Positions 771-64,000 are shown, numbered from the stretch's first letter. The stretch is 64,000 nt of DNA from an uncultured Gemmatimonadaceae bacterium (GCA_963829055.1 CAWHHI010000016.1:1120001-1184000), one strand, 5' to 3'. Numbers and translations: made by a program. Notes: a model not told the origin generated them from the letters alone.

Positions 771-1931
771 ATGCCACAGCCCGTCTATCTCGACCACGCA
801 GCGACCACGCCGGTGCGCCCGGAGGTCGTCGCAGCGATGGAACCGTTCTACGGTCCGCGATTCGGCAATCCCTCGAGCGTTCATCGTTGGGGGCGTGAGG
901 CGCGCGCTGCTCTGGACGAGGCGCGTGAGCGCGTTGCCCGGTGCCTTGGTGCAAAGCCGGACGAGGTGTGCTTCACGTCTGGGGGCACGGAAGCGGACAA
1001 CCTCGCGATCCTCGGCCCACTGCGCTCGCAGCGCGCGAAGGGACGCACCGCGATCGTCACGTCTCCGATCGAGCACAAGGCCGTGCTCGAGACCGTGCAT
1101 CACGCGGCGCGCAATGGCGTGACGGAGCGCATGCTCGGCGTTCTGCCTAACGGCGTGGTCGATCTGTCGTCCGTCGATGACGTCGTTGACGACTCGGTGG
1201 CCGTGTGCACGGTCATGTGGGTCAACAACGAGATCGGAACCATCCAGCCCGTTCCGGAGATCGCGAAGGCCGTGAAGGCGCGTGGTGGCGTCATGCACAC
1301 GGATGCCGTGCAGGCATTCGGCAAGCTCGCCATCGATGTGAAGACCGTGCCCGTCGACCTCCTGACGATTTCAGGGCACAAGATCGGAGCGCCAAAGGGC
1401 GTCGGCGCGATGTTCATCCGACGCGGCACACAGATCGACCCAATGTTCCATGGTGGATCTCAGGATCGCGGACGACGTCCAGGGACCGAGAACGTTGCTG
1501 CTGCCGTCGCGCTTGCGTGTGCGGCGGAGTTGGCGATCGCCGAGCACGACGCCGAGTGTACGCGTCTCGCGTCGCTGCGAGATGCGCTGGAGGAGGGATT
1601 GGTGGCGCGCATCCCCAATGCGGTCGTGCACGGCCGGGGTGCACCGCGAGCGGCGCACATTCTCAACCTCTCTGTTCCCGGCACCGACAGCGAATCGCTG
1701 CTCATGGCGCTCGACCTCGCGGGTGTTGCGGCCTCCTCTGGCTCTGCGTGTCAGAGCGGAAGCGTCACGCCATCGCACGTGCTGCGGGCCATGGGTGTTC
1801 GTCCGGAGCTCGCGGTGGCGGCCATTCGCATGAGCCTCGGCGCGCTCACGACGCCGGAGTGCGTGAGCCGCGTCGTCGAGCTGTTCCCTGCCCTGATCGC
1901 GAAGGCCCGCCGCCTGTCTGGTGTGGCGTAG
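771..1931 (+). CDS. iscS: Cysteine desulfurase, IscS/NifS group I
   Basis: YLDHAATTP, FTSGGTEADN, HTDAVQ, PLP lysine in SGHK, SSGSAC catalytic Cys; adjacent to mnmA. Confidence 0.93.
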   Translation: MPQPVYLDHAATTPVRPEVVAAMEPFYGPRFGNPSSVHRWGREARAALDEARERVARCLGAKPDEVCFTSGGTEADNLAILGPLRSQRAKGRTAIVTSPIEHKAVLETVHHAARNGVTERMLGVLPNGVVDLSSVDDVVDDSVAVCTVMWVNNEIGTIQPVPEIAKAVKARGGVMHTDAVQAFGKLAIDVKTVPVDLLTISGHKIGAPKGVGAMFIRRGTQIDPMFHGGSQDRGRRPGTENVAAAVALACAAELAIAEHDAECTRLASLRDALEEGLVARIPNAVVHGRGAPRAAHILNLSVPGTDSESLLMALDLAGVAASSGSACQSGSVTPSHVLRAMGVRPELAVAAIRMSLGALTTPECVSRVVELFPALIAKARRLSGVA

Positions 1932-1937
1932 CTGATC

Positions 1938-3041
1938 ATGGGAGAGCGCGTGCTGGTCGCCATGTCTGGCGGCGTCGATTCATCGGTCGCCGCGGCGATG
2001 CTCGTCGAGCAGGGCTACGACGTCATCGGCGCGACGATGAAGCTGTTCTGCTACGGCGACGACGTTCCCGACCGGCCGTGCTGCTCGCTCGACTCCATCA
2101 ACGACGCGCGGCGCGTCTGCGAGAAGCTCGGCGTGCCGCACTACGTGCTCAACCTCGAGAGCGCGTTCAGTCGCGACGTGATCAATGACTTCGTCGCCGA
2201 GTACGCGGCCGGCCGCACGCCGATTCCGTGCGTCCGCTGCAACACGTTCACGAAGTTTCGGGATCTGTTGCGCAAGGCCGACGCGCTGGACGCACCGTGG
2301 ATCGCCACCGGCCACTACGCGCGCACGCGGAACGGAGAGTTGCTGCGCGGCCGGGACGCGGGCAAGGACCAGAGCTACTTCCTGTGGGGCATCGACCGCT
2401 CCGTCGTTAGGCGCATGCTGCTGCCCGTCGGCGAGATGACGAAGCCCGAGACGCGCGATCGGGCTCGAGCTCTGGGTCTCACGGTGGTGGCGGACAAAGT
2501 CGAGAGCCAGGACATTTGCTTCGTGCCCGACGGCGATCACGCGAAGATCATCGCCCGCCGGCTGGGCGCCGACACGCCGTCGCTCGCCAGAGGCCCCGTA
2601 GTCCTCGTAGACGGCACTGTAGTGGGCGAACACGAAGGGTACGCCCGCTACACCATAGGCCAGCGGCGGGGCGTTCCTGGGGGATTCTCGGAGCCGATGT
2701 ACGTGGTCGGGATCCGGCCGGCTGACCGGGCGGTGGTCATCGGCCCGCGGGATGCATTGCTGGGGCGCGGCGTCGTGGCCTCCGAGATGAACTGGCTCGT
2801 CGACGCGCTGCCGGTCGGGTCACCGGTCCAGGTCCAGGTGCGCCACCGCGGAACACCCACGCCTGCGGAGATCGTTCGCATCCAGGGTGGAGAGATCGAG
2901 CTCGCGCTGGAGGAGCCAGTGGCGGCGATCACGCCGGGCCAGTCGCTCGTGCTGTACGATGGCGAGCGTGTCCTGGGTGGCGGTTTCATCGAGCGCGGCG
3001 GTGCCGCAGCGCGGATGACACTCCCGGTGCTGGCTGCCTAA
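1938..3041 (+). CDS. mnmA: tRNA 2-thiouridylase MnmA
   Basis: VAMSGGVDSS PP-loop, TPIPCVRCN, ATGHYA, KDQSYFL, SQDICF, TIGQRRG, PGQ. Confidence 0.96.
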   Translation: MGERVLVAMSGGVDSSVAAAMLVEQGYDVIGATMKLFCYGDDVPDRPCCSLDSINDARRVCEKLGVPHYVLNLESAFSRDVINDFVAEYAAGRTPIPCVRCNTFTKFRDLLRKADALDAPWIATGHYARTRNGELLRGRDAGKDQSYFLWGIDRSVVRRMLLPVGEMTKPETRDRARALGLTVVADKVESQDICFVPDGDHAKIIARRLGADTPSLARGPVVLVDGTVVGEHEGYARYTIGQRRGVPGGFSEPMYVVGIRPADRAVVIGPRDALLGRGVVASEMNWLVDALPVGSPVQVQVRHRGTPTPAEIVRIQGGEIELALEEPVAAITPGQSLVLYDGERVLGGGFIERGGAAARMTLPVLAA

Positions 3042-3080
3042 CGATCCAGATGTGGCGATCCAGTTCACCGCGCCAGGGCC

Positions 3081-3423: not shown

Positions 3424-4585
3424 AGTACTTCAGGCCACCCGCCTCGGCGAACTCGCGCATCATCCGCTCCTGCTCCTCCGAGAGCTTCTCGGGCACCGAG
3501 ATCTGTACCTCTATGATCAGGTCACCGCGCTGCCCGTCCTTGTCGATCCCCTGACCTCGGACCCGGAAACGTCGGCCCGACGCCGTCCCAGCCGGGATGC
3601 GGATCGCGACGCGCTTGCCATCGAGCGTCTTCACGCTGATCCGCGAGCCTAACGTCGCCTGCGCGATGTTGATCGGCACCGTCGCGATGAGGTCGAGTCC
3701 TTCGCGCTTGAAGAAGCGATCCGGCAGCACCTGCAACGTGATGATGAGATCGCCCGGTGGCGCACCAGCCGATCCACGACCGCCCTGCCCTTTGAGACGA
3801 ATCTTCGTCCCGGTATCCGAACCAGCAGGCACAGTGATCATCACCTTCTTGCGATTCCGCACTTCACCGGCGCCGTTGCACTTCGGGCATCGCTCCGACG
3901 GAATCTGCCCACGGCCAAGACACATCGGGCACGGACGGTTCACCGCGAATCCGCCCTGACCGAACGAGATCACGCCACGCCCGTTGCACTCCGGACACGT
4001 CTTCAGCGTCGCGCCCGGCGCCGCGCCGGATCCATTGCAGACATCGCACTCCTCGTTGACCTCGAGCTCGACCGACACCTTGTCGCCAACGGCCGCCACG
4101 CGGAACGGGACCTCGAGCGTCGTTTCGACCGTCTGACCGCGCTGTTCAGCGCGCGGCCGCGCGCCAGCGGCACCCGGCCGCTCCGCTCCGCCGCCACCGA
4201 ACATGGACGCGAAGAGATCGCCCAGCCCGCCGATGCCGCCAATGTCGAAGTCCTGAAAGCGGAAATCCTGCTGTTGCCCCGCGCCAGGCGACCCGCCACT
4301 CGGGCGCGGGCCGCCTGAAGGGCGCGCGCCACCACCACGCGCGCCACCAAAGCCGGAGAACGCGCCGAGACGTCGCATGTCATCGTACTGTTTCCGCTTC
4401 TCGGCATCTCCGAGAACGGTGTAGGCCTCCGAGATCTCCTTGAAGCGCTCGGCGGCTTTCGCGTCGTTCAGGTTCTTGTCGGGATGGTGCTTGGCGGCGA
4501 GCCGGCGGTATTGCTTCTTGATCTCGTCCTGGGATGCGGACGACGAGACCCCGAGGACCGCGTAGAAGTCCTTCGTTTGCGCCAT
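3422..4585 (-). CDS. dnaJ: Chaperone DnaJ
   Basis: J-domain HPD, G/F-rich linker, four CxxCxGxG zinc repeats. Confidence 0.96.
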
Positions 4586-5384: not shown

Positions 5385-6635
5385 TCAGCCAGCCACCATT
5401 CGTCGTACGAGATCCAACGCCGCCTGTGTCGCGCGGAAGCGAATCTCCGCACGATCGCCGATGAACCGCGACCCGTGAGTGCGCACGTCGCCCCGGACGT
5501 CTACCGCCATCCAGACCAGCCCCACGGGCTTGTCCGGTGTGCCGCCGCCAGGGCCGGCGACGCCGGTGATCGAAACGCCGATATCGACGCCGAGTCGGCG
5601 GCGTACACCAGTCGCCATCTCGCTCGCCACTTCTTCGCTCACAGCGCCATGGCGCTCGAGCGACTCCGTGGTCACCCCCAGAAGACCCTTCTTGACGCCG
5701 TTCGAGTACGCGATGACTCCGCCGATCACGACGGAGCTCGACCCCGATATGGCCGTGAGCCGAGCGCCGAGCAAGCCGCCGGTACAGCTCTCTGCGACAG
5801 CAATGGTGAGACCGCGCGCGTCACACTCGTTCAGCACCACTGACGCGAGGTCGGTTTGATTCTCGGCGTATGCATAACGCGCCGCGATTTCGCGGAGCGC
5901 CGCGATCCCCTCCGTGAGAGCGGCGTCCGCGGCGTCGGGCGCGAGATCCCGTGCGGTGAGCCGCAGGTCGACACCTTCCTGGCCCGGCAGGTACGCGAGT
6001 GACAAGCCGTCGATCCCATCGGCCAGCGGACCAAGCAGCTCGGCGAGCTTCGACTCGGCCACGCCGGTGGTTCGCAGTGTTCGCGATCGCACGACGACGC
6101 GCTGCTGGCCATCGAGTCGAGCGGTGAGACGTGGGAAAAGCTCGTCAGCGAGCATGCCACGCATCTCGCGCGGCACGCCTGGCAACATCGCGCACCAGCG
6201 TCCACGCTCGTCTTCCAGCCAGATCCCGGGTGCCGTGCCGTGCCGATTCGTGAGGACCGTGGCGCCACGCGGGATCATGATCTGCGTGCGATTTGTTTCC
6301 GGTATCTCACCACGCCCGCGTTCCTTCCACAACGCGCGCAACGCCTCCCACCTATCCTCGTCAGGCACCAGATCGCGACCGAACAGCTCCGCAATGGCAG
6401 GACGCGTGCGATCGTCGCTCGTCGGCCCGAGCCCTCCGGTGGTGATGACAGCGCCGGTTCGATCGAGCGCCTCGCGAACAGCGGACGCGATGTCGTTTGC
6501 ATCGTCGCCCACGGTTGCTCGCCGGACGATAGACACCCCGATGGACGCGAGCTCACGCGCGAGGTGCGCAGCGTTGGTGTCGACGGTGTACCCGAGCAGC
6601 AGCTCGTCACCGATCGTGATGATTTCGAGAAGCAT
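5385..6635 (-). CDS. cinA: Competence/damage-inducible protein CinA (MoCF-like domain + NMN deamidase)
   Basis: IGDELLLG..VDTN, GGLGPTSDD, AESCTGG, SITGVAGPGGG. Confidence 0.93.
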   Translation of the reverse strand: MLLEIITIGDELLLGYTVDTNAAHLARELASIGVSIVRRATVGDDANDIASAVREALDRTGAVITTGGLGPTSDDRTRPAIAELFGRDLVPDEDRWEALRALWKERGRGEIPETNRTQIMIPRGATVLTNRHGTAPGIWLEDERGRWCAMLPGVPREMRGMLADELFPRLTARLDGQQRVVVRSRTLRTTGVAESKLAELLGPLADGIDGLSLAYLPGQEGVDLRLTARDLAPDAADAALTEGIAALREIAARYAYAENQTDLASVVLNECDARGLTIAVAESCTGGLLGARLTAISGSSSVVIGGVIAYSNGVKKGLLGVTTESLERHGAVSEEVASEMATGVRRRLGVDIGVSITGVAGPGGGTPDKPVGLVWMAVDVRGDVRTHGSRFIGDRAEIRFRATQAALDLVRRMVAG

Positions 6636-6675: not shown

Positions 6676-7404
6676 TTACCTTCCCGCTTCTCGCGGCGAA
6701 CCGCCGAGCACGTACCCGAACCGGCGCGCATACAGGCCAAGCGAGTACAGCGTGAGCCCCACGGCACCAATCATGGACACGGTCGATGCAATGCCGTTGA
6801 ACATCGCAAAGTAGCGCCACGCGTCGGACGTCCAGTGCATCTCTGTCGCTGCCGCCGCGGCGAAGAACCAGAAGAACGCCGATCCCGCCCACGCCGATTG
6901 AAAGCCCGTCTTCCATTTCGCCGGGCCGATGGCCGAGATGATGATGCCTCGGCGTGCGGCGTATTGGCGGAAGATCGTCATCAGCGCTTCGCGCCCGAGC
7001 ACGACGAGCACGACCCACAACGGGAAGCTCACGAGGCCAAACGGTGTCACCAGGGGCCACGCTTCGTGCGGACCCGACATCACGGGGCCGATCGTTCCCC
7101 GGACCGCCCAGTCGTCCGGCGCCGGCAGCGGCGACACCAGCGGGAGCCCGCGGGTGAGCCACCACATCGGCCCGAGCGTACAGAGCAGCAGGAGCTTGTC
7201 GGCAATCGGATCGAGGAGCCGCCCGAGGTCCGTCTCGAGGTTGCGCGACCGCGCGAGCTTGCCGTCGTAGTAGTCGGTCACCGCGGCCGCGACGTACAGC
7301 GCCCACGCGGCGAGGCGCAGTGGCCACGACGGCATGATCACCATCCACGCCACGACCGGCGCGACGGCAATGCGGACGGCGGTGATCGCGTTAGGCAGGT
7401 TCAC
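6676..7404 (-). CDS. pgsA: CDP-alcohol phosphatidyltransferase (PgsA-like)
   Basis: MNLPNAIT, DYYDGKLAR...GRLLDPIADK signature; next to cinA. Confidence 0.85.
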   Translation of the reverse strand: MNLPNAITAVRIAVAPVVAWMVIMPSWPLRLAAWALYVAAAVTDYYDGKLARSRNLETDLGRLLDPIADKLLLLCTLGPMWWLTRGLPLVSPLPAPDDWAVRGTIGPVMSGPHEAWPLVTPFGLVSFPLWVVLVVLGREALMTIFRQYAARRGIIISAIGPAKWKTGFQSAWAGSAFFWFFAAAAATEMHWTSDAWRYFAMFNGIASTVSMIGAVGLTLYSLGLYARRFGYVLGGSPREAGR

Positions 7405-8149: not shown

Positions 8150-8635
8150 TTACTGGAACAATCGGTCGATCTCGTCGTCGGCATCGGCGAGAACGTTAGG
8201 CTGGCCGGCGCCGGATTGGCTTCGGCGGAACACTTCCTCGAACAACCGGGACAGCTCGTCGACAGTCTGTCGCATCTTCAGGCGCACGAGTCCGAGTGTC
8301 GTCCGGTTATCGAACAACACGACGAGAATGACGCGCCGCGCGACGTCCGCGAGGAGCATCGACTCTCGCTCTCCCTGATGGAAGAGAGTGTTGAAGTCGG
8401 TCTCCCCAATCAGTTTCGCCAGCTGATCGTTCGCGCTGAAGTCCGCCGCGGTGAGCGTCGCGAACGCCGTCGCGTCGAAGGTCGGCTTCTCACCGACCGT
8501 CGTCACGAGCTGGCCGCTGCGATCTACGAGGAGAGCGCATCGAGCGTTGCTGTCGTACAGAAATCGTTGCAGTAACTGGTTGATCGCCCCGAAATCATCC
8601 TCGGTGAACGACCAGCTCGTAGCACCTACGGGCAT
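8150..8635 (-). CDS. mglB: MglB roadblock/LC7 GTPase-activating protein
   Basis: LLVDRSGQ, LAKLIGE..F..LFHQGE, LGLVRL, C-terminal DDEIDRLF; directly upstream of mglA. Confidence 0.9.
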   Translation of the reverse strand: MPVGATSWSFTEDDFGAINQLLQRFLYDSNARCALLVDRSGQLVTTVGEKPTFDATAFATLTAADFSANDQLAKLIGETDFNTLFHQGERESMLLADVARRVILVVLFDNRTTLGLVRLKMRQTVDELSRLFEEVFRRSQSGAGQPNVLADADDEIDRLFQ

Positions 8636-9999: not shown

Positions 10000-11838
10000 T
10001 CAGTCCAGAAGCTCGAGATCGAGCGCGTCGATCGCCGCGCGGAGTACGGGATCCTGCTTCCTGAGTGATGCCATCCGCTGCTCGCGGATCTCCTCTTCAG
10101 TAACGCGACGCGATGCACCGGACGCGGCCTTCCCTTCGGGGCGCGCGATCGCGATCCGATCGACCGCCGGGTAGAAGGATTTCACGACGCCGAGTAAATC
10201 CGCCTTCCCCATGTCGAGGCCGTCAGCGGACGCGACGTCGTCGATGCGGATCGTGAGCATCCCGGAGGCCGAGATGGCCGACGGCACTGCCTGCTCCAGA
10301 TATGGTGCAAGCAGAACGCGAGTCTCTCGAACGGCAGCGACAATGTCGTCCCATCGTTCCGTGAGCACGTTGATCGTCGGCAACGTGGGCGTGACCGCTG
10401 ACGGCGCGCGCGACTGCACGCGCGACGCCGTAGCGGTGGCCGTCGCGGCGCCTGCGACCGTCGGTGCGCGCGCCGCGGACACCGTCGTCGACGATGCCGA
10501 CGGTCCCCACGGCGGCTCGCCACGCGGGCCCGAATCGCGATCGCGGACGACTGGCGGGACGACGGGACGATCCGCTGGAGGCCCAGGGGGTTCGGCCATT
10601 GCTCGCCGAGGGACATCGGAGGCGATGCTACTCTGCCCCGCGGACGACCGCACTGACGGGGTGCCGCCCGACGACGCGCCTCGCGATCCCGCTCCCGAAT
10701 TCCCGCCATCACCGAGTCCGCGCAAGACGTCCTCGATGGCGACCGTGCGGTCGAGCAGCGCAAATCGAATCAGGAGCGTTTCGAGAAGTAGTTGCTGCTG
10801 CCCGCTCTTCCGAAACCGCTGTTCGAGCTCGCCGATGGCGGTGAGCATTCGCAGCAGGTCACCGGCAGAGATACGATCACGTCGCGCTTCGAGCGTGGCG
10901 CGCGCACGATCGGACACTTCCACCGTGGAAGACCCGAGCACGACAGCGAGTTGCGCGCGGAGCATGTCGGCGAGTCCGGTGAGGAAGATGCCGAAGTCGA
11001 CTCCGGAATCGCCGAGACGCTGGACCAGCGGGAAGACATCACCGGCGCGTCGCGCGGCGATGACATCGAGCACGGCGAGATACTCGTCTTCGGGCACGAT
11101 CCCGAGCGCGTCGCGAACGCGTTCGGCCGTGAGCGCCCCCTCGCCTAACGACAGCGACTGGTCGGTAAGACTGAGGGCGTCGCGCATCGAGCCATCGGCC
11201 GCGCGCGCGATCATCGCGAGCGCTTCGGGCTCAGCCTCGATGTGCTCGTCCGCGAGCACGGTCTGGAGACGGGCCTTCACGTCAGCGGGCCCGATACGCC
11301 GGAAGTCGAAACGCTGCAGTCGGCTCAGCACCGGTGCGGCCGCCTGCGCGATCTTCTGCGGTTCCGTCGTCGCGAACACGAAGACGACACGCGGTGGTGG
11401 CTCCTCGAGTACCTTGAGCAGCGCGTTCCACGCTTCGCGCGTGAGCATGTGTGCCTCGTCGACGATGTAGACTTTGTACCGATCGTCGCCGGATGGCGCG
11501 TACATCGCGCGTTCACGCAGGTCCCGCGCATCGTCGACGCCGCGGTTGGACGCCGCGTCGATCTCGATCACGTCGAGACTCGCAGACCCGCTCCAGATGC
11601 GCTGGCAGGAATCGCAGACGCCACACGGCTCGCCGTCGGGCGCTCGATTCTCGCAGTTGAGCGCCATCGCGAGGACGCGGGCGAGCGTCGTTTTCCCGAC
11701 GCCCCGCGGGCCACACAGCAGGTAGCCGTGGGCCACGCGTCCGCGAGCGATTGCGCCCTTGAGCGTGTTCGAGACGTGCGACTGGACCGCGACGGACGCG
11801 AAGTTGCGCGGACGGTATTTGCGCGCGAGAGCGAGCAT
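10000..11838 (-). CDS. dnaX: DNA polymerase III subunit gamma/tau
   Basis: LARKYRP, GPRGVGKTT, EIDAASNRGVDD, DEAHML, KVLEEPP; start set at ATG 11838. Confidence 0.96.
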   Translation of the reverse strand: MLALARKYRPRNFASVAVQSHVSNTLKGAIARGRVAHGYLLCGPRGVGKTTLARVLAMALNCENRAPDGEPCGVCDSCQRIWSGSASLDVIEIDAASNRGVDDARDLRERAMYAPSGDDRYKVYIVDEAHMLTREAWNALLKVLEEPPPRVVFVFATTEPQKIAQAAAPVLSRLQRFDFRRIGPADVKARLQTVLADEHIEAEPEALAMIARAADGSMRDALSLTDQSLSLGEGALTAERVRDALGIVPEDEYLAVLDVIAARRAGDVFPLVQRLGDSGVDFGIFLTGLADMLRAQLAVVLGSSTVEVSDRARATLEARRDRISAGDLLRMLTAIGELEQRFRKSGQQQLLLETLLIRFALLDRTVAIEDVLRGLGDGGNSGAGSRGASSGGTPSVRSSAGQSSIASDVPRRAMAEPPGPPADRPVVPPVVRDRDSGPRGEPPWGPSASSTTVSAARAPTVAGAATATATASRVQSRAPSAVTPTLPTINVLTERWDDIVAAVRETRVLLAPYLEQAVPSAISASGMLTIRIDDVASADGLDMGKADLLGVVKSFYPAVDRIAIARPEGKAASGASRRVTEEEIREQRMASLRKQDPVLRAAIDALDLELLD

Positions 11839-13253: not shown

Positions 13254-13388
13254 CCCGGGAACCTAACGTTACAAGCGGCGGATGGGCGAGCGTGGCCGCA
13301 TCGCCACTCCCGCCCATCGCCCATCCCCACACCGGATGCGACGAGTCGCCTAACCAGTGTTCCGCGAGCCGCAGCGCTTCCAGCGCGC

Positions 13389-15171: not shown

Positions 15172-15246
15172 AGCCTCTCCTCGTCATCTCGCGCCGCTTG
15201 TGCGGCGCGGGTCGTGATCGGTCACCAACGCGGTAAGCGAGATCGC

Positions 15247-24485: not shown

Positions 24486-24565
24486 GGCACTCGATGCAGG
24501 GCACTCGGAGAGGCATCAGACGTTCGACCCCGAGATGATGCCTGTGTCGTTAGGCCGGAGAAAGA

Positions 24566-27053: not shown

Positions 27054-27066
27054 CGAGTCGCGTCGC

Positions 27067-34369: not shown

Positions 34370-34385
34370 CGTCCAGACCCGGAAC

Positions 34386-34446: not shown

Positions 34447-34447
34447 A

Positions 34448-36259: not shown

Positions 36260-36277
36260 GCAGCCAGCGTCGCAAGC

Positions 36278-38873: not shown

Positions 38874-39355
38874 ATTTACATCTCCCTGGAAAGCGTAAAA
38901 AGCGTAGCGTTACGACGACTGACAGGGCGGCGGGGCGGGAACCTCGCTTCGCGCGGAGCGGCGAAGAGGGCGCAGTTTATCGGCGTTCGTGAAACCGCGC
39001 CAGTCCGCACGTAAGTGGTCATACAGCAACGACTTATTCTTTGCACATCACGAATCTCAATCCGAGCTCGACTTTTCCACGGCCGCAGGATTACACCGCT
39101 CTCACGTTCGCCACGAAATCTACCCCGTTCGCGACTGCGATGGCTGCCTAACGCGTCGTGCATGGTCAACTCGATGACGCTAAAGCGGTTGCCCAATCCA
39201 ACGACCACATTCTCGGTCACGCCGCAGCCCTCCGTCCGTCGAGCACGGTAGTCGGCCGTTGGGAGCGCGCCGATCGCACGTCGGGTGTTCTTGCCCGGAA
39301 ACACGTGCAGCGTGCGTGCCACCGGCGCCCTCGCAGGCCGAACGCCGACAAGCAC

Positions 39356-44525: not shown

Positions 44526-44553
44526 TGGCTCTCGTGACCTATGCCTAACGCAT

Positions 44554-48716: not shown

Positions 48717-48795
48717 GCTTGTCGACCAGCGACCAGCACGAGCGACCAGCTACCAGCCTGCAGTTCCCTATTCCCGATTCCCGATTCCCGAACCG

Positions 48796-51575: not shown

Positions 51576-52388
51576 ATGCATCCTGTGGATTCATCGACCA
51601 CGGCCGAGCACCGTGTCACGCTGCTCGAAGAAGCGCTGAACGAGGCCGCACAGGTCAATGCGGAGCTGCAGTCGCGCGACGCACTGAAGACGCAATTCCT
51701 GTCGAACATCTCGCACGACCTGCGCACGCCGCTCACGGCGATCATCACGCACGCCGAGATCCTTCGTGACGGCATCCTCGGGCCGTTGTCCGAGCGGCAG
51801 CGCGATAGCGTGGCGAGCATCATCGGCGGCGGGCGACAGCTGCTCGACGCCGTCGGCGAGATTCTCACGTATGCGCGTGGCGCGGCGAATCAGCTCACGG
51901 TATCACCCAGCGAGTTTCACATCTCCGCGGTCGTGGCGCAGGTGTCCGCGCTCAACGAGCCGTTGATCGCGAAGAAGGGATTGTCGCTGAGCGTCGATGT
52001 GGCCGACGGCGTTCCGTCGCTCGTCGCGGACCGCGAGCAGGTCACGCACGTGGTGAGCAACCTCCTCGGCAACGCCATCGCGTTCACGCCGGCCGGCGGA
52101 CGCGTGTGGGTGAACGTGACGTGCGTGCGCGACGCCGCGACGACGAACGTGCAGGTGGAAGTGGGCGACACCGGCATCGGCATCGCGCCGGAACACCACG
52201 ACCTGGTGTTCCGCGAGTTCGCGCAGGTCGACCCCTCTCCGTCACGCCGGCATCACGGCACGGGGCTCGGCCTAACGATTGCGCGGCGGCTCGTGGAGCT
52301 GAACGGCGGACGGATCTGGCTCGAGAGCCAGCTCGGAGAAGGCAGTCGGTTCTTCTTCGCCCTGCCGGCCGGCGACGTCACGCGCTGA
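51576..52388 (+). CDS. Sensor-less histidine kinase (HisKA + HATPase)
   Basis: SHDLRTPL, NLLGNAIAFT, DTGIGI, GTGLGL. Confidence 0.9.
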   Translation: MHPVDSSTTAEHRVTLLEEALNEAAQVNAELQSRDALKTQFLSNISHDLRTPLTAIITHAEILRDGILGPLSERQRDSVASIIGGGRQLLDAVGEILTYARGAANQLTVSPSEFHISAVVAQVSALNEPLIAKKGLSLSVDVADGVPSLVADREQVTHVVSNLLGNAIAFTPAGGRVWVNVTCVRDAATTNVQVEVGDTGIGIAPEHHDLVFREFAQVDPSPSRRHHGTGLGLTIARRLVELNGGRIWLESQLGEGSRFFFALPAGDVTR

Positions 52389-53768: not shown

Positions 53769-55577
53769 GTCTTCTCCTCTCGCGGATCGCCGCGCTCGAC
53801 CACGAGCGGGGCGCTTCCTGCGTTGGTATTACCGCGTAAAGTATCGACCATTCCGGCGCGAGAAACGTCCGCACGACGGCCGGCGCGGCCTGATCATGCT
53901 CCAGATCGACGCCCTCGCGTATGCCGACCTGCGCCGCGCGATGGAGCTTGGCTACACGCCGACGTTGTCGCGCATGGTGAACGAGGACGAGTTCACGCTG
54001 CGCCGGTGGTTCTGCGGCCTTCCGTCGGCGACGCCGTACTGCCAGGCCGGCATCTTCCACGGCGAGAACGACGGGATCCCGGCCTTCCGCTTCTATGACA
54101 AGGCGGCGCGTCGAGTGGTCACGTGCAACGCGCCGGAAGGCGTGCAGTACATCCGCGACCGGATCCGCGCCCCCGGCGCTCTGGCGGACGGGTCGAGCTA
54201 CGTGAACCTGCTCGATGGCGACGCGCGCACGGTCGCGTTCACGGTCGCGACCCGGGAACGCATGTCGGTCTACCGCCGACTCGGTGGGACGCGCATGGCG
54301 CTGCTGATTCTGCTCCATCCGCTGCGCGTCGTTCGCATGCTGCTGCAAGGCGGTGGGCGAGTGGCTGCGCGAGGAGTGGGAGCGTGCGCGCGGCGAATGG
54401 GCGGGACGTTTCACGCACGCGGAAGGCATCTTCCCGTTCTTGCGGATCCTCACGAACGTCGTCGTGCGCGAGCTGCAGACGATCGCGATCCTGCTCGACG
54501 TGTACCTCGGCGTGCCGGTCATCTACAGCACGTTCATGCAGTACGATGAGCTCGCGCATCACTTCGGGTCCACGAGCCGGTTCGCGCTCTCCGACCTGCG
54601 GCGCACGGACGCGCGCATCGGCGAGATCGAACGCATGGCGCTCGCGGCGGGCGGCCGCGGATACGATCTCGTGATCCTGAGCGATCACGGCATGACGCCG
54701 TCGGTCGAGCTATCGGGTGCGCTTTCGCGAAACGCTCGGCACGACGGTCCAGCACATTCTCGACGGCGATGCGTTCCGCACGGGCGAGATGCCGATTCGT
54801 TCGCTCGCCAGCTTCGCCGAGACGAGCGAGTATGCCGACGTTGGACCACGCGTCGTGGAGTCGGTGGCGGGCGTGACAACATCGCGTCGTGGGCGTCGCA
54901 CGCTGCGCCGGCTGCGCGATTGGGTGCGGTCGCGCTACGGCCTGCGCGAGCTGGTGTTGCCCGAGAAGTATCGGGTCGACGCGAAGCACGGCGTCGTGGT
55001 GACGTACAGCTCGTGCCTCGCGCTCGTCTACTTCGCGCAGGAAGAAACGCGCCTCGCGCTCGAGGACATCGCCCGCAACGCACGGCACGTGGTCCTGTAC
55101 GACGCGCTGCGTGAGCACCCGGGCATCGGCCTCATCGCGGCGCTGGACGCGCGCGGCGTTCACGTGCAGAGCCGCGCCGGTCGCGCGCGCATCATCGACG
55201 GCGCGGTGGAAGTGCTGGACGGGGAGAATCCGCTGGAGCCGTACGGGGCGGACCCGCTCACCGTCCGCGCGATCGAGTCGCTCGTCAGGCAACCGAACGC
55301 CGGAGACCTCGTGCTGTTCGGTGCGTACGACGGCTACGAGATCGTCTCGTTCGACGACCAGATCGGCGCGCACGGCTCGGCGGGCGGCGACCAGGTGTGG
55401 CCGTTCCTCATCGCGCCAGGGGCGTTAGGCATCGGCAGCGAGCGCATCGAGAATGCGCGCGACATCCACCGCGTCATCATGCGGCGCTACGCGCGCGAGC
55501 CGGTCGCGATGGAAGACGTGCTGGAGCCGGATGAGGAACAGGCAGCAGCCAGTGGAGCAAATCAGCGATCGGGGTAG
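53767..55577 (+). CDS. Alkaline phosphatase superfamily / nucleotide pyrophosphatase-like protein (frameshifts near 54352, 54712)
   Basis: LQIDAL, LPSATPYCQAGIFHG, YDELAHHFG, ILSDHGMT, GAHGSAGG; start uncertain. Confidence 0.78.
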
Positions 55578-55861
55578 CGTGTCACTACTCGACGCCTAAC
55601 GCGGCTGGCCGGCGACGACACCGGCAATTCACCGCAGAGGACGGCTTCGACAACCCTCTCAGACGAGGGGAGCGAACGGATTCGTCTGATCTGGCGGATT
55701 GGCTCCTCGAGCGCGAAGGACGCTACAGCAACGAGCCGAATTGAAGAGGAACAGCCCGGGACATGAATCCGATCATCCGTTCGACGCCTTTCACTCTGAG
55801 CAGCCCGCGCGAGAGCAGTCCTCGGCTTGCATGGTGCGATCCGTCAAATCCCAGGAACGGA

Positions 55862-56581
55862 TCAGCGCTCCAGCGTCGCGAGCGGGGCTTCGAGGGCATC
55901 GCGGAATGCTTCGGTCGACAGGCGGTCCGGTTCGGCACCCTCGCCGGCGCGGCGCTGCACGCCCCTAACGACCGCGTCCAGCGCGTCGAGCGGCGCATCC
56001 GCCTCGGCGACGACGTCCACCTCCCACTTGCCGCGGTCGGCGCCCTTGAGCGTGAGGCGGTAGCGGGCGGTGTGGATCGTGAATCGAGATGCAACGCGCG
56101 CGGCGCTCGCGACGGCGGAACCGGTCAGCACATCGTCGTCATCTGCATCATCGACATCGGCGTCGTCATCCATCTCGTCTTCGTCGGCATCCTCGCCGTC
56201 CTCGTCGCCGTCGTACTCCTCGTCGTCCTCATCGTCATCATCACGCGCGTAGGGCGACTCATGCTCATCATCGTCGATGACTTCAACGACTTCCGTGACT
56301 TCGATGACTTCGTCGCTCTCGACTTCCGCGACCTGAGCCAACGCCGGCGAGATCTCCTCGCTCTCCGCGAGGATGACTACGTCGGTTGCCTCCGATAACT
56401 CCGCCTGCGGCTCCGCTGACGCCAGTACTGGTGCCGGCCGCCGAGGATCTTCCGCGACGACGGCCACGCCCGTCTCCACGCCGCCCTGGCGAATGGGCGG
56501 AAAGAGGTGAAGCTCGATCACGTGTTCGACCGGCACGCGTTGCGCGATGGCGCGCAGGAATCGCTGCTGCGTTTCCGTCAT
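55862..56581 (-). CDS. Hypothetical protein with central Asp/Glu-rich insert
   Basis: Ordered N- and C-terminal blocks (ELHLFPPIRQGGVETGVAV; HTARYRLTLKGADRGKWE) around an acidic tract; ATGA overlap with upstream gene. Confidence 0.7.
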   Translation of the reverse strand: MTETQQRFLRAIAQRVPVEHVIELHLFPPIRQGGVETGVAVVAEDPRRPAPVLASAEPQAELSEATDVVILAESEEISPALAQVAEVESDEVIEVTEVVEVIDDDEHESPYARDDDDEDDEEYDGDEDGEDADEDEMDDDADVDDADDDDVLTGSAVASAARVASRFTIHTARYRLTLKGADRGKWEVDVVAEADAPLDALDAVVRGVQRRAGEGAEPDRLSTEAFRDALEAPLATLER

Positions 56582-57803: not shown

Positions 57804-59796
57804 ATGAGCACCGCGAGTACGGCGCATCGCCGCTTCAAGCTGCCTGGCCTGGCGTTCGCGCTGGCCGTCACCTGCGCCGTCAACGCAGCGGCGCAAGGGC
57901 GCGCTCCACGGGACACGGCGCTCGTCGCGCGGCGCGATTCGCTCGAGCGCGAGCTGCAGCGGATCGCAGTCGTCGATCGGAAGCTCATGGTGCCCATGCG
58001 GGATGGGGCGAAGATGCAGTTCGACGTGTATCGCCCGAAGAACGCGAACGGGCCGGTGCCGGCGATCTTCGTCCGCACGCCCTACAACATGAACTTCTGG
58101 GACGTCACCCTCGGCGCCCCGGCCGATATGACGGCGCAGCTCGACGCGGTGAAGCGCGGCTACGCGTACGTCGGCGCCAACGAGCGCGGACACTTCTTCT
58201 CCGAGGGGAACTACGACATTCTCGGACCGCCGACCACGGACGGAACGGATGAGATCCAGTGGATCTCGTCGCAGAACTGGTCGAACGGCAAGGTCGGCCT
58301 GATCGGCTGCTCGTCGACCGCGGAGTGGCAGATGGCCGTCGCGGCGCAGGCGCCCGAAGGGCCTCGCGACGATCATCCCGCAGGGGTTCGGCGCCGGTGT
58401 CGGTCGCGTGAAGCCGTACTACGAGCAGGGCAACTGGTACCGCGGCGGCGCGGTGCAGATGCTGTTCATCGACTGGCTGTACGGCGAGCAGAACCAGGTG
58501 CGACCGACGTTCCCGCCGAACACGTCGCAGGAAGATCTCATTCGCGCAGCCAGGTCGTTCGACCTCGCTGACCATCAGCCGCCGGTCGACTGGGACAAGG
58601 CGTTCTGGCATTTGCCGGAGAAGGATCTGCTGAAAGCCGTCGGTGGCCCGCGCGGCATCTTCGCGGATTCGATGCCGGGGATCGCGACCGGTGGGGCGAT
58701 GATCCAGCGCACGCCTAACGATCCGGCGTGGTACCGCGGTGGGCTGTTCAACGACGACATGAAGATCAACGTGCCCGGCCTGTGGTTCATGTCGTGGTAC
58801 GACGTGTCCGTCGGGCCGAACCTCGCGACGTACAACTACGTGCGCCGCACAGCCGACCCGGCTATCGCGAATCAGCAGTATGCGGTGATCGCGCCGACGC
58901 TTCACTGCTCGTACAAGCGCGCGACGGAGAACACGATCGTCGGTGAGCGGAGCGTTGGTGACGCGCGGCTCGACTACGACGCGCTCACGTACGGGTGGTT
59001 CGACATGTTCCTCAAAGGCGAGAAGAACGGGCTGCTCGACACGCTGCCGAAGATCCGCTACTACACGATGGGCTCGAACAAATGGCAGTCGACGGACACA
59101 TGGCCGCCGCGTGGCGCAGAGGGCATGTCGTTTTATCTGTCGAGTGAAGGCGGCGCCAACACGCGGAATGGAAACGGCGTGCTGACCACGAAGGCACCGT
59201 CCGACGACAAGCCGGACACGTTCGCGTATGACCCCATGCACCCGGTGATGTCACACGGCGGCAACGTGTGCTGCCAGGGCAATGCGCTCGCGGGTGGCGC
59301 GCTCGATCAGCAGGAGACGGAGTTGCGGCCCGACGTGCTCGTGTACACGACGGAGCCGTTCAAGGAAGGCATGGAGATGAGCGGGCCGATCGACGCAACG
59401 ATCTACCTCTCGTCGGACCGGAAGGACACGGATGTCACGGTGAAGATCATCGACGTGTATCCGGACGGCAAAGCGTACAACCTGGACGAGACGATCCAGC
59501 GTGTGCGCTATCGCGACGGCTACGACAAACCGGTGACGTTCATGGAGCCGGGCAAGGTCTACAAGGTCGCGCTGCAGCCGATGACGACGAGCAACTACTT
59601 CGCGCCGGGCCATCGCATCCGGATCGAGGTGTCGAGCTCGAACTTCCCGCGCTTCGATCGCAACCTGAACACGGGCGGGAAGAACTACGACGAAACGACG
59701 GGACTGGTGGCGAAAAACGTCATTCACCACTCGAAGCAATATCCGTCGTCGATCAAGATCACAGTGGTGAAGAAACCGCCGACCGCGGACAACTAG
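57804..59796 (+). CDS. CocE/NonD family serine hydrolase (frameshift near 58355)
   Basis: Signal peptide, [48 protein letters not shown]. Confidence 0.88.
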
Positions 59797-59862: not shown

Positions 59863-62142
59863 TCACAGCAGACTGACCGGATCCCGATCGAGCGCGACGC
59901 GCAACTGACTTCGGTTCTTCGGCACCTCGAGACGCTCGACGAGAAAGCGACACGCGCGCGTCAGCAGCGCGGGGTTCGTACTCTTGAGCAGGAGGTGCCA
60001 GCGCCACCGGGTCTTCACGCGCTCGATCGGGCACGGTGCCGGACCCACCACCGAGATGTCGCTGCCGTACTTCGCGACCGCTCGACGTAGGCGATCCGAC
60101 GTCGTCGACGCGAGCTTCTGCGTCTCGTTCTCGTGGAGCCCCGAAAAGATCACGTTCGCGAGACGCGTGTACGGCGGATACGCCGGCTCACCGCGGCCGC
60201 CTAACTCCTGCTCGACGAATCCGCTGTAGTCGTGCGCGACCGCGCAAACGACGGCGTGATGCCCTGGCACGCGCGTCTGAATCAGCACTCGGCCACCCTT
60301 CGGCCCGCGGCCTGCGCGCCCAGCCACCTGACTCAGCAGCTGGAAGCAACGCTCCGATGAGCGGAAGTCCGGCAGGTTGATGCCGACGTCCGCATCGATC
60401 ACGCCGACGAGCGTCACGTTAGGGAAGTCGAGTCCCTTCGCGATCATCTGCGTGCCGAGCAGGATGTCGACCTCGCCGCGGCCGACACGATCGAGAATGT
60501 CGGCGTGCGCCCACTTCCCTGTCGTCGTATCGACGTCCATGCGCGCGATCCGCGCCGACGGAAAGCGCTCCGACAACAGACGCTCCACCTGCTGCGTGCC
60601 GAGTCCACGCCTGCGCAATGTGTCGCCGCCGCACCGCTTGCAGCGTGGTGTCGGCTCTTCCTTGTGCAGGCAGTAGTGGCAGACCAGCCGCTCAGGCGTG
60701 CAATGGTACGTGAGCGAGATCGTACAATTCGGGCACGTCGATACGTCGCCGCACTGACTGCACTGCACGAACGACGCGTACCCGCGGCGGTTGAGCAGGA
60801 GAATGCTCTGCTCTCCGCGGGCGAGACAGTCGACGAGCTCACGCTCGAGCGGGTCGCTCACGACGAGCGTGAAGGGATCGGGCGGCGCCTGAGAATCACG
60901 CGCCGGCAGGCGGCGCATGTTGACCACATCGATCTTCGGAAGGCTTCCACCACCGACGCGCTCCGGCAACGAGAGCCGTTTGTACTTCCCCGACGTCGCG
61001 TTCGTCCAGCTCTCCAGGCTCGGGGTCGCGCTACCGAGCACGACGACCGCGCCCTCATTGCGCGCGCGCACGATCGCGACCTCGCGCGCGTGATAGCGCG
61101 GCGATTCGGCCTGCTTGTAGCTGCCCTCGTGCTCCTCGTCGACGATGATCGCGCCGACGTTGCGAAGCGGCGCGAAGATGGCCGACCGCGCGCCGACGGC
61201 AATGCGCTTCTCGCCTCGACGAAGAGCGAGCCATGCGTCGTAGCGCTCGCCGTCGCTCAGCGCTGAATGGAGTACGGCAACGTCATCTCCGAAGACGAGA
61301 CGGAATCGATCGACGGTCTGTGGCGTCAGCGCGATCTCGGGCACGAGCACGATGGCCGTCTGCCCGCGATCGCGCACCACACGTTCGAGCAGCTCGATGT
61401 ACACGAGCGTCTTGCCACTGCCCGTGATCCCGTGCAGGAGAAACACTTCGCCCGGCGCACCCGCCGCGAGTGCGGAGATCGCCTGCTGCTGATCGGCCGT
61501 TGGCGCGTGGCGACGCGTCGAGATCTGCGGCCGCGCGGCGAATGGATCACGCTGCACGATCTCTTCGCGGACCGTGACGAGATTTCGCGCGACGAGTCCC
61601 TTGAGCACCGACGGCGAGAAGCTGAGCTGCTCGAGGAGATGCTCGACCGGCGAGCGGCCGCCTAACGATTCCATGAGCTCGTACAACGCGCGCTGCTGCG
61701 GCGCACGGGCGAAGATGCGGTCGCGATGCATCAGCGACGACAGCTCGTTCGTGATCACGGCAATCCGGCGGACCTTCTGCTGCGGCGTCGGGACCGCCGC
61801 GCCGGTCATGAGCGCGGGCAGCACTCCGCGAAGCACGACGCCCAGCGGAACGACGTAGTACGCCGCCATCCAGCGACACAACTCCAGCATCGCGGCGTCG
61901 ATCGCCGGCTCGGCGTCCGGCGCCTCGATGATCGACTTGTAGCGGCGCGCCGTGTCGGTCTCTTCGACGAAGCCCACACACACACCGACCTCCTTCCGGT
62001 TCCGGAAGGGGACCACGACGCGCGTGCCGGGCACGATGGCGTTCGCGTACTGATCGTCAGCGCGATACGAGAACGTGTTGAACAGCGGCAGCGCCAGCGC
62101 GACCTCGACGAGCACGTCAGCGGCCGTGGTCGACGCTCGCAT
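59863..62142 (-). CDS. priA: Primosomal protein N' (replication restart helicase)
   Basis: GITGSGKT, VPEIALTPQ, DEEH, SATPS, LNRRGY, CxxC motifs, GTQMIAKG, QVAGRAGR. Confidence 0.96.
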   Translation of the reverse strand: MRASTTAADVLVEVALALPLFNTFSYRADDQYANAIVPGTRVVVPFRNRKEVGVCVGFVEETDTARRYKSIIEAPDAEPAIDAAMLELCRWMAAYYVVPLGVVLRGVLPALMTGAAVPTPQQKVRRIAVITNELSSLMHRDRIFARAPQQRALYELMESLGGRSPVEHLLEQLSFSPSVLKGLVARNLVTVREEIVQRDPFAARPQISTRRHAPTADQQQAISALAAGAPGEVFLLHGITGSGKTLVYIELLERVVRDRGQTAIVLVPEIALTPQTVDRFRLVFGDDVAVLHSALSDGERYDAWLALRRGEKRIAVGARSAIFAPLRNVGAIIVDEEHEGSYKQAESPRYHAREVAIVRARNEGAVVVLGSATPSLESWTNATSGKYKRLSLPERVGGGSLPKIDVVNMRRLPARDSQAPPDPFTLVVSDPLERELVDCLARGEQSILLLNRRGYASFVQCSQCGDVSTCPNCTISLTYHCTPERLVCHYCLHKEEPTPRCKRCGGDTLRRRGLGTQQVERLLSERFPSARIARMDVDTTTGKWAHADILDRVGRGEVDILLGTQMIAKGLDFPNVTLVGVIDADVGINLPDFRSSERCFQLLSQVAGRAGRGPKGGRVLIQTRVPGHHAVVCAVAHDYSGFVEQELGGRGEPAYPPYTRLANVIFSGLHENETQKLASTTSDRLRRAVAKYGSDISVVGPAPCPIERVKTRWRWHLLLKSTNPALLTRACRFLVERLEVPKNRSQLRVALDRDPVSLL

Positions 62143-63175
62143 CGTGGCGCGGCCTAACGCCGAGCCCGGGGGTGGCCGGCAGCGTGATGACGCCGCCGGC
62201 GATCGACGCGCCTTCGAAGGGATCGTTCGCGAGCAGCGCCGCCCCGTCGAGGTCCGCGTAGTCGAGCAATGGTGCGAGGTGCGCGACCGCCGTGATCCCA
62301 AGGCTCGTCTCGACCATGCAGCCGGCCATGACGGACATGTCGTGCGCCCGCGCGGCGGCAATGATTCGCATGGCTTCCCGAATCCCGCCGCATTTCGCGA
62401 GTTTGAGGTTGATGCCATCGACCGCGCCGGCGAGCTTCGGCACGTCCGTCGCGACGAGACACGACTCATCGGCGATGATCGGGAGCGGCGAACGGTCGCG
62501 CACGAAGCGAAGTCCCTCGATGTCGTGCGCAGCGACAGGTTGCTCGACGAACTCGACATCATAGTCCAACAGCAGGTCGATCATGCGCAACGCGCTCTTC
62601 GGCGTCCACGCCGCATTCGCGTCCACGCGAAGAATCTTGTCTGGCTCGGCCGCACGAACGGCGGCAATCGTGTGCGCATCACGGGTGCCACCGAGCTTCA
62701 CCTTGAGCACCGGGTATGGGGCCGCATCCTCCAGCGCGCGATGCAGCCCCTCGTCATCGTTGGTGAGCGGGATGGTGAAGCTCGACTGCGGCGCGCGCGC
62801 GGGATCGAGGCTCAGCATGCGATGCAGCGGCACGCCGAGCCGTTTGGCCGCGAGGTCATGCAGCGCCGCGCTCACGGCCGATTTCGCCGAGCCGTTGAAC
62901 CGGATCACGCGATGCATCTCGGCCTCGATGGCCTCGAGCGACCATGCATGCATGCCATGCAGCGCCGCGAAAAGCCGGTCGATCACCGCGATCACCGTCT
63001 CCGTCGTCTCTCCATAGAAGCGACTCGGCGCAGCTTCACCCCAGCCCTCGGCGCCGTCGTCATCGATGATGCGAACCCAGACGAGACGCCACTCGCTCGC
63101 GCCCCCACGCGCGATGACGAATGGCGTTCGCGTTCGCACCGTCATGATCTCATGCTCGAGCCTCAGTGTGCTCAT
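62117..63175 (-). CDS. Dipeptide epimerase (L-Ala-D/L-Glu epimerase, enolase superfamily)
   Basis: GWGEA, KVKLG, RVDAN, EQP, ADES, KLAKCGG, GCMVE, DLDG. Confidence 0.9.
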   Translation of the reverse strand: MSTLRLEHEIMTVRTRTPFVIARGGASEWRLVWVRIIDDDGAEGWGEAAPSRFYGETTETVIAVIDRLFAALHGMHAWSLEAIEAEMHRVIRFNGSAKSAVSAALHDLAAKRLGVPLHRMLSLDPARAPQSSFTIPLTNDDEGLHRALEDAAPYPVLKVKLGGTRDAHTIAAVRAAEPDKILRVDANAAWTPKSALRMIDLLLDYDVEFVEQPVAAHDIEGLRFVRDRSPLPIIADESCLVATDVPKLAGAVDGINLKLAKCGGIREAMRIIAAARAHDMSVMAGCMVETSLGITAVAHLAPLLDYADLDGAALLANDPFEGASIAGGVITLPATPGLGVRPRHDASVDHGR

Positions 63176-64000
63176 ATCGGCGTCGCCGGTGCTCCGCCGC
63201 CACGGCGAGCGAACCACGCCGCGCGCGTTTCGCCGGGAGAGCCAACCGTCATGAGGAAGTCGAGCAGCGCATCTGCGAGCTCGGCTCCGGTCTGGAAGCG
63301 CACATCAGCGGGCTTCGCGAGACAGCGCATCACGAGCGCCGACAGCTCGGGCGAAACGCGCGAGTCCACGACCTCGGGCGCAGCGGCCGTCTCGTGGACG
63401 TGCTTGTAGCCCACCGAATACGAATCCGCGCCATCGAATGGCGGGAAACCAAGCAGCATCTCGTACAGCATGACGCCGACGGCGTAGATGTCGCTGCGGC
63501 CGTCCACCATCTTGCCCATCGCCTGCTCCGGCGACATGTAGTGCGGCGTGCCCATCGCCCGGCCCGTTCCCGTTAGGCGCCCGTGAAAGCGAGCCGTCGC
63601 GATCCCGAAGTCCGTGATCAGTGCGTGGCCGTCCTCGTCGAACAGCACGTTGTCCGGCTTCACGTCGCGATGGACGACACCGCGGCGATGCGCGTAGTCG
63701 AGCGCCGTCGCGATCTGTGCGCAGACCGCCGCTGCCGAACCCGCGCCTACCGTCCGCTCCTTCACGAGCACGTCCGCCAGCGACCCGCCAGCGAGATACG
63801 GCATGACGATGAACACGGCTTCGGCCGCTTCGGCGTAGTCGATGATCGTGCAGATGTGCGGGTGCACGAGCTGACTCGCCGACTCCGCCTCTCGCCGGAA
63901 ACGCTCGCGCATCTCTTCGTCACGCGCGAGGTGCGTGTGCAGCACCTTGATGACGAGCGGCCGCTCGAGCAATTGATGCTCGGCGTAGTAGACGTTCGCC
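63172..64000 (-). CDS. Hanks-type Ser/Thr protein kinase (5' truncated by window edge)
   Basis: VIK, RFRREA, HRDVKPDN, DFGIA, GTPHYMSPEQ, DIYAVG. Confidence 0.93.
   Translation of the reverse strand, partial: ANVYYAEHQLLERPLVIKVLHTHLARDEEMRERFRREAESASQLVHPHICTIIDYAEAAEAVFIVMPYLAGGSLADVLVKERTVGAGSAAAVCAQIATALDYAHRRGVVHRDVKPDNVLFDEDGHALITDFGIATARFHGRLTGTGRAMGTPHYMSPEQAMGKMVDGRSDIYAVGVMLYEMLLGFPPFDGADSYSVGYKHVHETAAAPEVVDSRVSPELSALVMRCLAKPADVRFQTGAELADALLDFLMTVGSPGETRAAWFARRGGGAPATPI

Follow-up and report, generated by a model that had tools for sequence, protein, structure and literature searches.

A hyper-iterated octamer of soil Gemmatimonadaceae resembles a DNA uptake signal and equals the core of integron attC sites

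To our knowledge, only a few DNA words are both hyper-iterated and embedded in genes: the DNA uptake sequences (DUS), the uptake signal sequences (USS), and the highly iterated palindrome HIP1 (GCGATCGC). Chi, the FtsK-orienting polar sequences (KOPS), and the MatP, SlmA, and Noc sites are also short, iterated, chromosome-wide words that bind proteins. The words of KOPS, DUS, and USS and the site numbers of Chi and matS used here are general knowledge. In this study we analyzed a window of 64,000 nucleotides from an uncultured Gemmatimonadaceae bacterium (GCA_963829055.1, CAWHHI010000016.1:1120001-1184000), in which the non-palindromic octamer GCCTAACG occurs 36 times. On present evidence, the octamer works like DUS but stands outside the DUS, USS, and HIP1 families. 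We did not find it (GCCTAACG, CGTTAGGC) described in the full-text literature, although a mention in a k-mer survey table is possible, as subscription journals and supplements were outside the scope of the search.

The original prediction, made from the window alone, proposed a genome-wide DNA signal and located 22 copies on the plus strand and 14 on the minus strand, each of which lies exactly where it was said to be. Dinucleotide shuffling gave 0.88 ± 0.96 copies with a maximum of 3 (100 shuffles), so the 2-3 copies initially expected by chance are if anything an overestimate. By our own gene calls, 5 of the 36 copies are outside genes. Five others supply stop codons, as proposed, and what was described as use of every frame amounts to four sense frames plus two stop frames at gene ends. 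The nine one-mismatch copies listed at the time are all present, but four GCATAACG variants and one CGTTATGC variant had been overlooked. The patchiness of the trait, its occurrence in a second phylum and in phages, and the match with the attC core, all described below, lay beyond what the window alone could show.

The host genome (G000; 7.78 Mb in 20 contigs) contains 5,004 copies, 2,457 and 2,547 per strand, corresponding to one per 1.56 kb or 0.64 per kb, and the 22:14 ratio in the window is noise. Homologues of its mnmA with the closest match among named organisms belong to Gemmatimonadaceae and Gemmatimonadales. An order-3 Markov model, itself inflated by the octamer, expects 258 copies. 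In 5,248 called genes we counted 2,962 copies, compared with 78-94 in five synonymous shuffles (34-fold); these gene calls are our own and incomplete, and the assembly contains frameshifts. The octamer is used at 59% of the x-Pro-Asn-x sites able to hold it, and its first codon directly precedes 195 of 675 TAA stops and 181 of 1,374 TAG stops. Pro-Asn itself is over-represented (observed/expected 1.40, versus 1.03 in motif-poor relatives), and 1,212 of the 2,507 TTA codons of the genome (48%) fall in the octamer. Density rises with the GC content of third codon positions from 0.41 to 0.77 per kb and differs between divergent (0.37 per kb), tandem (0.81), and convergent (1.09) intergenic regions. 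Both 16S genes lack the octamer. The codon-shuffle excess, together with the variant pattern and the conservation, supports a constraint that acts on DNA independently of protein sequence.

The consensus of the motif is VCMTAACR, with GCCTAACG as its best form and 7,483 sites outside chimeric contig ends. Four one-mismatch forms are enriched, ACCTAACG (827 copies), GCATAACG (583), GCCTAACA (435), and CCCTAACG (428), while GCCTAATG and GTCTAACG are null variants. A changed position 2 was found in 109 copies in all and a changed position 7 in 31 (three variants), compared with 5,004 exact copies, yet in two frames position 7 falls on a third codon base where a change would be synonymous. The flanks are near background, with weak preferences at -1, +1, and +2. 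Copies avoid one another in any orientation, neighbours mostly lying at least some 250 bp from each other: relative pair density is 0.16-0.26 below 100 bp, 0.57 at 175-200 bp, and about 0.9 at 300-500 bp, and is flat with distance for pooled control words. The four enriched variants are also excluded near octamers (0.43-0.54 within 200 bp), which may be inherited from decayed sites. The other 20 one-mismatch words gave a pooled ratio of 0.97, with the rare GCCTAACC, GCCTAACT, and GCCAAACG dipping to 0.51-0.58. Helical phasing, tried at eight periods, showed nothing beyond a weak 10.5-bp value. A second repeat family around TCATTCCGAG, with about 700 copies, and other words resembling repetitive extragenic palindromic (REP) elements are also present in the genome.

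Orthologous positions retain the octamer beyond control words. When comparing G000 with its relative G001 over 154 kb of alignment at 77.6% identity, we found exact conservation of 44 of 85 copies and of 18 of 83 control words. Orthologous octamer sites with 0-5 changes numbered 82, 24, 22, 21, 12, and 7, and the control words 108, 146, 106, 48, 19, and 8 (53 gapped sites were left out). The distribution for the octamer is all-or-none, and the flanks of conserved copies have diverged no less than those of other copies (0.24; the value for conserved control words is 0.17). Gains are substitutions inside intact reading frames. The same pattern of conservation has been described for DUS by Treangen et al., as far as the accessible part of that article goes (PMC2397512). 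All 13 copies in three metagenome contigs from other samples were unaltered at 98% identity and named finished records carry the octamer too, which refutes an assembly or polishing artefact.

We then asked how widely the octamer is distributed. About 94 of 251 Gemmatimonadaceae genomes, in 33 of 77 genera, have at least 100 copies (maximum 7,821), and most of the others have fewer than 50; this tally was made by hand and includes four unpublished genomes, two of which (G057 and G155) are among the 94 and on which no other result depends. Elsewhere in the phylum, 3 of 127 genomes (two unpublished included) plus G030 exceed 100 copies. On a quick MiaB tree of 53 of the 56 genomes in our panel, the labels rich and poor change 13 times, with 5 changes forced by strong branches, and sisters contrast sharply (474 copies per Mb in G095 versus 4 in G054; 974 in G071 versus 12 in G129). 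The trait was gained or lost repeatedly in the family, which is shown only roughly because the tree represents one gene with many open forks.

Carriers are also found beyond the family. Scanning metagenomes for three spaced cores yielded 119 stretches, 80 of them with flanks. Words that looked like dialects of the octamer at other loci proved to be tandem or REP-like repeats and were rejected. Several contigs of 57-60% GC were rich outside the selected stretch (L356, 14 copies versus 0.18 expected; L323, 7 versus 0.22; L331, 7 versus 0.30). The nearest named homologues of one L331 and one L323 protein are from Chthoniobacterales, Spartobacteria, or Verrucomicrobiota, and one protein from L356 groups with clusters of Verrucomicrobiota. 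The octamer is enriched in Chthoniobacterales (Verrucomicrobiota), known here from 10-kb contig pieces rather than genomes. In an Acidobacteriota-centred sample of 121 genomes (two unpublished included), only G452 stands out, with 299 strand-balanced copies in 4.9 Mb, and this genome could represent a third lineage or contamination. Within the lineage, the octamer is abundant in a cultured species, Gemmatirosa kalamazoonensis; the megaplasmids of strain KBS708 carry 778 and 701 copies, about 0.7 per kb. Five virus contigs are rich on both strands, with 31 copies in 17 kb (L224), 12 in 7.8 kb (L183), 11 in 12 kb (L162), 5 in 6 kb (L283), and 29 in 44 kb (G386), and four of the five have terminase, portal, capsid, or endolysin matches. 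These contigs came from spaced-motif scans and were selected by the octamer; among 80 loci inspected in such a scan, most reflected chance or attC sites. Relatives of the richest one were too distant for comparison.

Several other virus-like loci were noted in these scans. L364 has an FtsK-type packaging ATPase by eye, is possibly tailless, and carries 13 copies in 10.5 kb. In the phage contigs L194, L169, and L153, small genes are separated by attC-like repeats. The related phage contigs L273, L274, L275, and L281 have a 0.7-1.2 kb cluster of 9-15 TCCTAACG, palindrome included, which is iteron- or operator-like and lies partly within an open reading frame (ORF). We rejected TCCTAACG as a dialect of the octamer, as it forms a local 1-kb cluster in four phage loci.

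The reading that we tentatively favor is that the octamer acts in the manner of DUS, biasing how incoming DNA is taken up or processed. We infer that a protein reads the octamer and that the octamer acts on incoming DNA. The octamer would be an unmethylated double-stranded signal, and its sequence-specific reader would favor DNA that bears it in uptake or in the first recombination steps, as happens with DUS and USS in Neisseriaceae and Pasteurellaceae. If one site per few hundred bases suffices, point mutations creating a site would spread where none is nearby, sites would settle in the least costly frames, and they would decay once the reader is lost. The likeness to DUS and USS includes a non-palindromic word at about one per kb, on both strands and in genes, that is conserved in an all-or-none manner where the surroundings are permissive. 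Spacing at short range is shared as well, in mild form in DUS: in our control, 462 DUS in 450 kb of Neisseria gonorrhoeae, the dip was 0.55-0.78 at 50-300 bp. A temperate Haemophilus phage carries the USS of its host (17 in 32 kb). The transformation toolkit is present in the host genome, which has comEC, a comEA with a frameshift, and genes for type IV pili, but these genes occur throughout the order, motif-poor relatives included.

Not all observations fit a DUS-like signal, and those that weigh against it concern both the reader and the distribution of sites. The ComP_DUS family (PF16732) was under the cut-off in 5 of 5 genomes; because the control set gave no hit either, only this family is excluded as the receptor. 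ComEC (53 of 55), ComEA-type helix-hairpin-helix proteins (56 of 56), and PilW-like proteins (51 of 55) occur in rich and poor genomes alike. A solitary pilin encoded near ftsB-eno first appeared more frequent in rich genomes (15 of 26, versus 6 of 29 poor ones, with a 55-residue query). With a profile, however, it was recovered from only 20 of 42 rich genomes, compared with 10 of 38 poor ones; it is missing from near-complete, very rich genomes, and we rejected it as the reader. The sites themselves form almost no inverted terminator pairs at 8-25 bp (none F..R, one R..F), compared with 95 in the 450 kb of the DUS control, in which inverted pairs are in 20-fold excess. The longest gaps span conserved core genes, whereas DUS, according to the accessible part of the report, are core-enriched and absent from recently acquired genes (PMC2397512); pointing the other way, octamer density increases with third-position GC and the foreign-looking chimeric DNA is free of it. 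The mobile DNA examined is not depleted: the 21-kb integrase/primase element found in G062 carries 17 copies in 20 kb, and phage contigs, although motif-selected, have 0.66-1.8 copies per kb, one of them being 98% complete without a tyrosine integrase. Depletion between divergent genes could reflect binding inside the cell. For a kin tag it is unusual that two phyla share one word, DUS and USS being family dialects. Further differences are the unrelated sequence, the stronger local exclusion, and the identity with the attC core.

No reader was found among the tested families, namely, ComP, ComEC, ComEA, PilW, the solitary pilin, IntI, and DndC. ComEC, IntI, the C5 and N6/N4 methylases, and the PilW-like and ComEA-type proteins were searched in the rich/poor panel, and DndC, AddB-type nucleases, and ComP in 5 genomes. 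The genes around comEC include none private to rich genomes. The solitary pilin (G000:C16:947580-948051, L474) belongs to a type IV pilin subfamily that is patchy in Gemmatimonadales, with an isoelectric point of 5-12; its gene is frameshifted in the assembly, and its structure is predicted with a local distance difference score (pLDDT) of 92.

Among the alternatives, a HIP1-like methylation target kept by an orphan methyltransferase would match the abundance and conservation of the octamer. Like HIP1, it has thousands of copies that spread by substitution, are conserved beyond codon needs, and are patchy on the tree, and the function of HIP1, long open, has recently been linked to transformation, so far as the accessible parts of these sources state (PMC5861425; PMC13756078). 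However, the octamer is not a palindrome, and the PacBio methylome of G. kalamazoonensis, whose plasmids are full of it, reports only RGATCY, ATGCAC, and CCAGN7TCA (PMC3974934). Of 27 rich and 29 poor genomes, 8 and 10, respectively, have a C5 methylase (PF00145) and 12 and 17 a PF01555 methylase, with neither in G000, and DndC occurs in 0 of 5 genomes; PF02384, PF07669, PF02086, and other m6A families were not searched. Because the methylome omits the octamer and no tested methyltransferase family tracks it, it is not HIP1, and we consider this explanation very unlikely. The integron offers another source. The R' box of the attC core is GTTRRRY, and in Gemmatimonadales arrays the commonest R' box plus one base equals the octamer letter for letter. 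Motif-poor relatives have few clustered copies, which point the same way, are about 600 bp apart, and belong to cassette arrays adjoining an intI-like gene; when the R' box was located with the L box as anchor, the octamer was found in 51 of 61 attC sites and GTCTAACG in 7 (this count was used since a hairpin finder recovered few sites). Part of the host's own array, too, carries the octamer as R' box. The host has a chromosomal integron with an IntI over the cut-off and a cassette array (G000:C20:188000-209000) and a truncated IntI N-terminus at C4:2850-3239. Integrase or cassette traffic could have spread the attC core through the genome, but the R''-L''-L'-R' hairpin in co-oriented arrays is restricted to the copies within the array at C20:188-208 kb and within those of relatives. 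Genomic octamers have no hairpin, L box, or common orientation, only 12 of 5,004 have attC-like flanks (one pattern), tolerated variants differ, and gains are substitutions in intact frames. Of 26 rich and 29 poor genomes, 14 and 20, respectively, have an IntI over the cut-off, and the very rich G104, G070, and G114 lack one. Since IntI does not co-distribute and GTCTAACG is not enriched (24 copies in G000), the integrase is hardly the driver, and we give this explanation as little weight as methylation. Somewhat less improbable, albeit speculative, is that soil bacteria from different phyla have a receptor adapted to the near-universal attC core and use it to select integron gene cassettes from environmental DNA, with molecular drive having spread the core through chromosomes, plasmids, and phages; the octamer would then be a cross-phylum uptake passport rather than a kin tag. 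Natural transformation can supply integrons, according to the part of the source available (PMC12614218).

Polar signals share with the octamer little more than its length. Copies of the octamer are 5-100 times as numerous as Chi, KOPS, or MatP/SlmA/Noc sites, going by general site numbers, and 51.3% of them (2,245 versus 2,133) follow replichore polarity, compared with 80% of KOPS (505 versus 129) in the same segments. AddB-type nuclease matches do not track the octamer in 5 genomes. As there is no replichore polarity, Chi and KOPS are excluded, as originally argued from the strand ratio, and we give a polar signal, or an artefact in view of the many independent assemblies that carry the octamer, almost no credence. 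Neutral writing, in which repair or editing converts near-matches to the octamer in any replicating DNA and is blocked near existing sites, would apply to chromosome, plasmids, and phages alike and produce local exclusion. It is nevertheless improbable, as divergence at four-fold sites does not change with distance from the octamer (0.42-0.50 at 78% identity, where it is partly saturated, and 0.02-0.09 at 98%), one-mismatch words outside the family are not enriched near sites, and no candidate enzyme was found. The main rival of a DUS-like signal, somewhat less probable than it, is a site for an intracellular sequence-specific protein, acting as a self mark (nuclease shield or maintenance licence) or as a nucleoid organizer at 300-500 bp per site, with phages and satellites acquiring the octamer for its benefit inside the cell. 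The high density in the mobile element and in phage contigs that encode a terminase, portal, or capsid protein, the load of the megaplasmids, the strong orientation-free exclusion, the avoidance of divergent intergenic DNA, and the rapid loss in sister lineages all agree with it. On the other side, no intracellular candidate protein was found, and the phage contigs were picked by the motif, with neither hosts nor lifestyles established. No 8-90 kb periodicity was detected on three large draft contigs (p 0.18-0.98 in a simple Fourier test, a method unlike that of Xu et al.), a tentative difference from HIP1 with its 10-90 kb periodicity, and there is no ter- or ori-specific hole in G000, the inferred terminus at C16:550 kb having an ordinary 0.4-0.5 copies per kb. 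Two motif holes were rejected as a ter domain since their genes look foreign by eye and the DNA is probably chimeric. Of the origins first proposed, methylation is thus disfavored and local repair shielding was not seen, while an uptake signal and an intracellular protein site stand.

Other features of the host genome were also recorded. The motif-free contig ends G000:C6:5440-55037 and G000:C11:1-44000, 45-50 kb long, have genes that look acidobacterial or alphaproteobacterial by eye and are probably chimeric or contaminant DNA; the motif delimits them sharply, a possible binning check. Core genes at G000:C16:100000-950000 converge on the inferred terminus near 550 kb (80-99% co-oriented), close to which are xerC-like and rRNA genes. 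The window includes the RNA of the signal recognition particle at 12097-12193, upstream of dnaX (Rfam), gas-vesicle genes (gvpG, gvpL/F) with an ArsA-type ATPase at 31000-35300 in this soil genome, and a tandem repeat of 8 copies of ATTCCCGATT. Octamer copies and tolerated variants in the window are listed in Table 1.

Table 1. Exact octamers and tolerated variants in the 64,000-nucleotide window
Feature	Position	Strand	Context
exact octamer	1145..1152	+	Pro-Asn frame, class-V aminotransferase (IscS-like)
exact octamer	2405..2412	-	Val-Arg frame, mnmA
exact octamer	3036..3043	+	TAA stop of mnmA
exact octamer	3647..3654	+	Leu-Gly frame, dnaJ
exact octamer	7389..7396	-	Pro-Asn frame, CDP-alcohol phosphatidyltransferase
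exact octamer	8194..8201	-	Pro-Asn frame, Roadblock (MglB-like) gene
exact octamer	11143..11150	+	Leu-Gly frame, dnaX
exact octamer	15245..15252	+	TAG stop of sigma-54 response regulator
exact octamer	19395..19402	+	Val-Arg frame, metallo-beta-lactamase-fold gene
exact octamer	21932..21939	-	Pro-Asn frame, ORF 20784-22412
exact octamer	24078..24085	-	Leu-Gly frame, CHASE3 histidine kinase
exact octamer	24548..24555	-	outside called genes
exact octamer	24976..24983	+	Val-Arg frame, Hpt/receiver protein
exact octamer	27065..27072	+	TAG stop of PAS histidine kinase
exact octamer	28090..28097	+	Leu-Gly frame, PAS kinase
exact octamer	28699..28706	-	Leu-Thr frame, PAS kinase
exact octamer	33144..33151	+	Val-Arg frame, ArsA-type ATPase
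exact octamer	33958..33965	+	outside called genes
exact octamer	34298..34305	+	Leu-Gly frame, gvpG
exact octamer	36254..36261	-	TAG stop of lipase
exact octamer	39146..39153	+	outside called genes; adjoins ribonucleotide-reductase piece
exact octamer	39934..39941	+	Leu-Gly frame, Amidase_3 gene
exact octamer	40920..40927	-	Pro-Asn frame, Amidase_3 gene
exact octamer	43367..43374	+	Val-Arg frame, GH3 hydrolase
exact octamer	44543..44550	+	outside called genes
exact octamer	44842..44849	-	Leu-Thr frame, anmK
exact octamer	48470..48477	+	Leu-Thr frame, gamma-glutamyltranspeptidase
exact octamer	48794..48801	-	TAA stop of glycine-zipper protein
exact octamer	50638..50645	-	ABC-transporter region, frame ambiguous
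exact octamer	52270..52277	+	Leu-Thr frame, histidine kinase
exact octamer	55423..55430	-	Leu-Gly frame, ORF 54717-55577 (no Pfam hit)
exact octamer	55594..55601	+	outside called genes
exact octamer	58713..58720	+	Pro-Asn frame, PepX_C protein
exact octamer	61660..61667	+	Leu-Gly frame, priA
exact octamer	62152..62159	+	Val-Arg frame, enolase-superfamily gene
exact octamer	63571..63578	-	Ser/Thr kinase, Leu-Thr frame by coordinates
tolerated variant GCATAACG	5872..5879	+	
tolerated variant ACCTAACG	13261..13268	+	
tolerated variant GCCTAACA	14084..14091	+	
tolerated variant GCATAACG	15743..15750	+	
tolerated variant CCCTAACG	18267..18274	-	
tolerated variant GCATAACG	24141..24148	-	
tolerated variant GCATAACG	33344..33351	+	
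tolerated variant GCATAACG	43242..43249	+	
tolerated variant GCCTAACA	45571..45578	+	
tolerated variant ACCTAACG	48137..48144	+	
tolerated variant CCCTAACG	55963..55970	+	
tolerated variant CCCTAACG	60417..60424	-	

Overall, the octamer alters codon usage, and to some extent peptides, in two groups of soil bacteria that are abundant but have hardly been cultured, and it can serve as a practical marker for binning and for linking phages to hosts. Because there is a cultured carrier and the trait is gained and lost between sister genera, the reader should be findable by whole-proteome profiling and the function directly testable. Should the octamer be an intracellular mark, there would be a chromosome or defence protein, as yet undescribed, that phages mimic. 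As an uptake signal, it would be the first one common to more than one phylum and would link transformation with the pool of integron cassettes.

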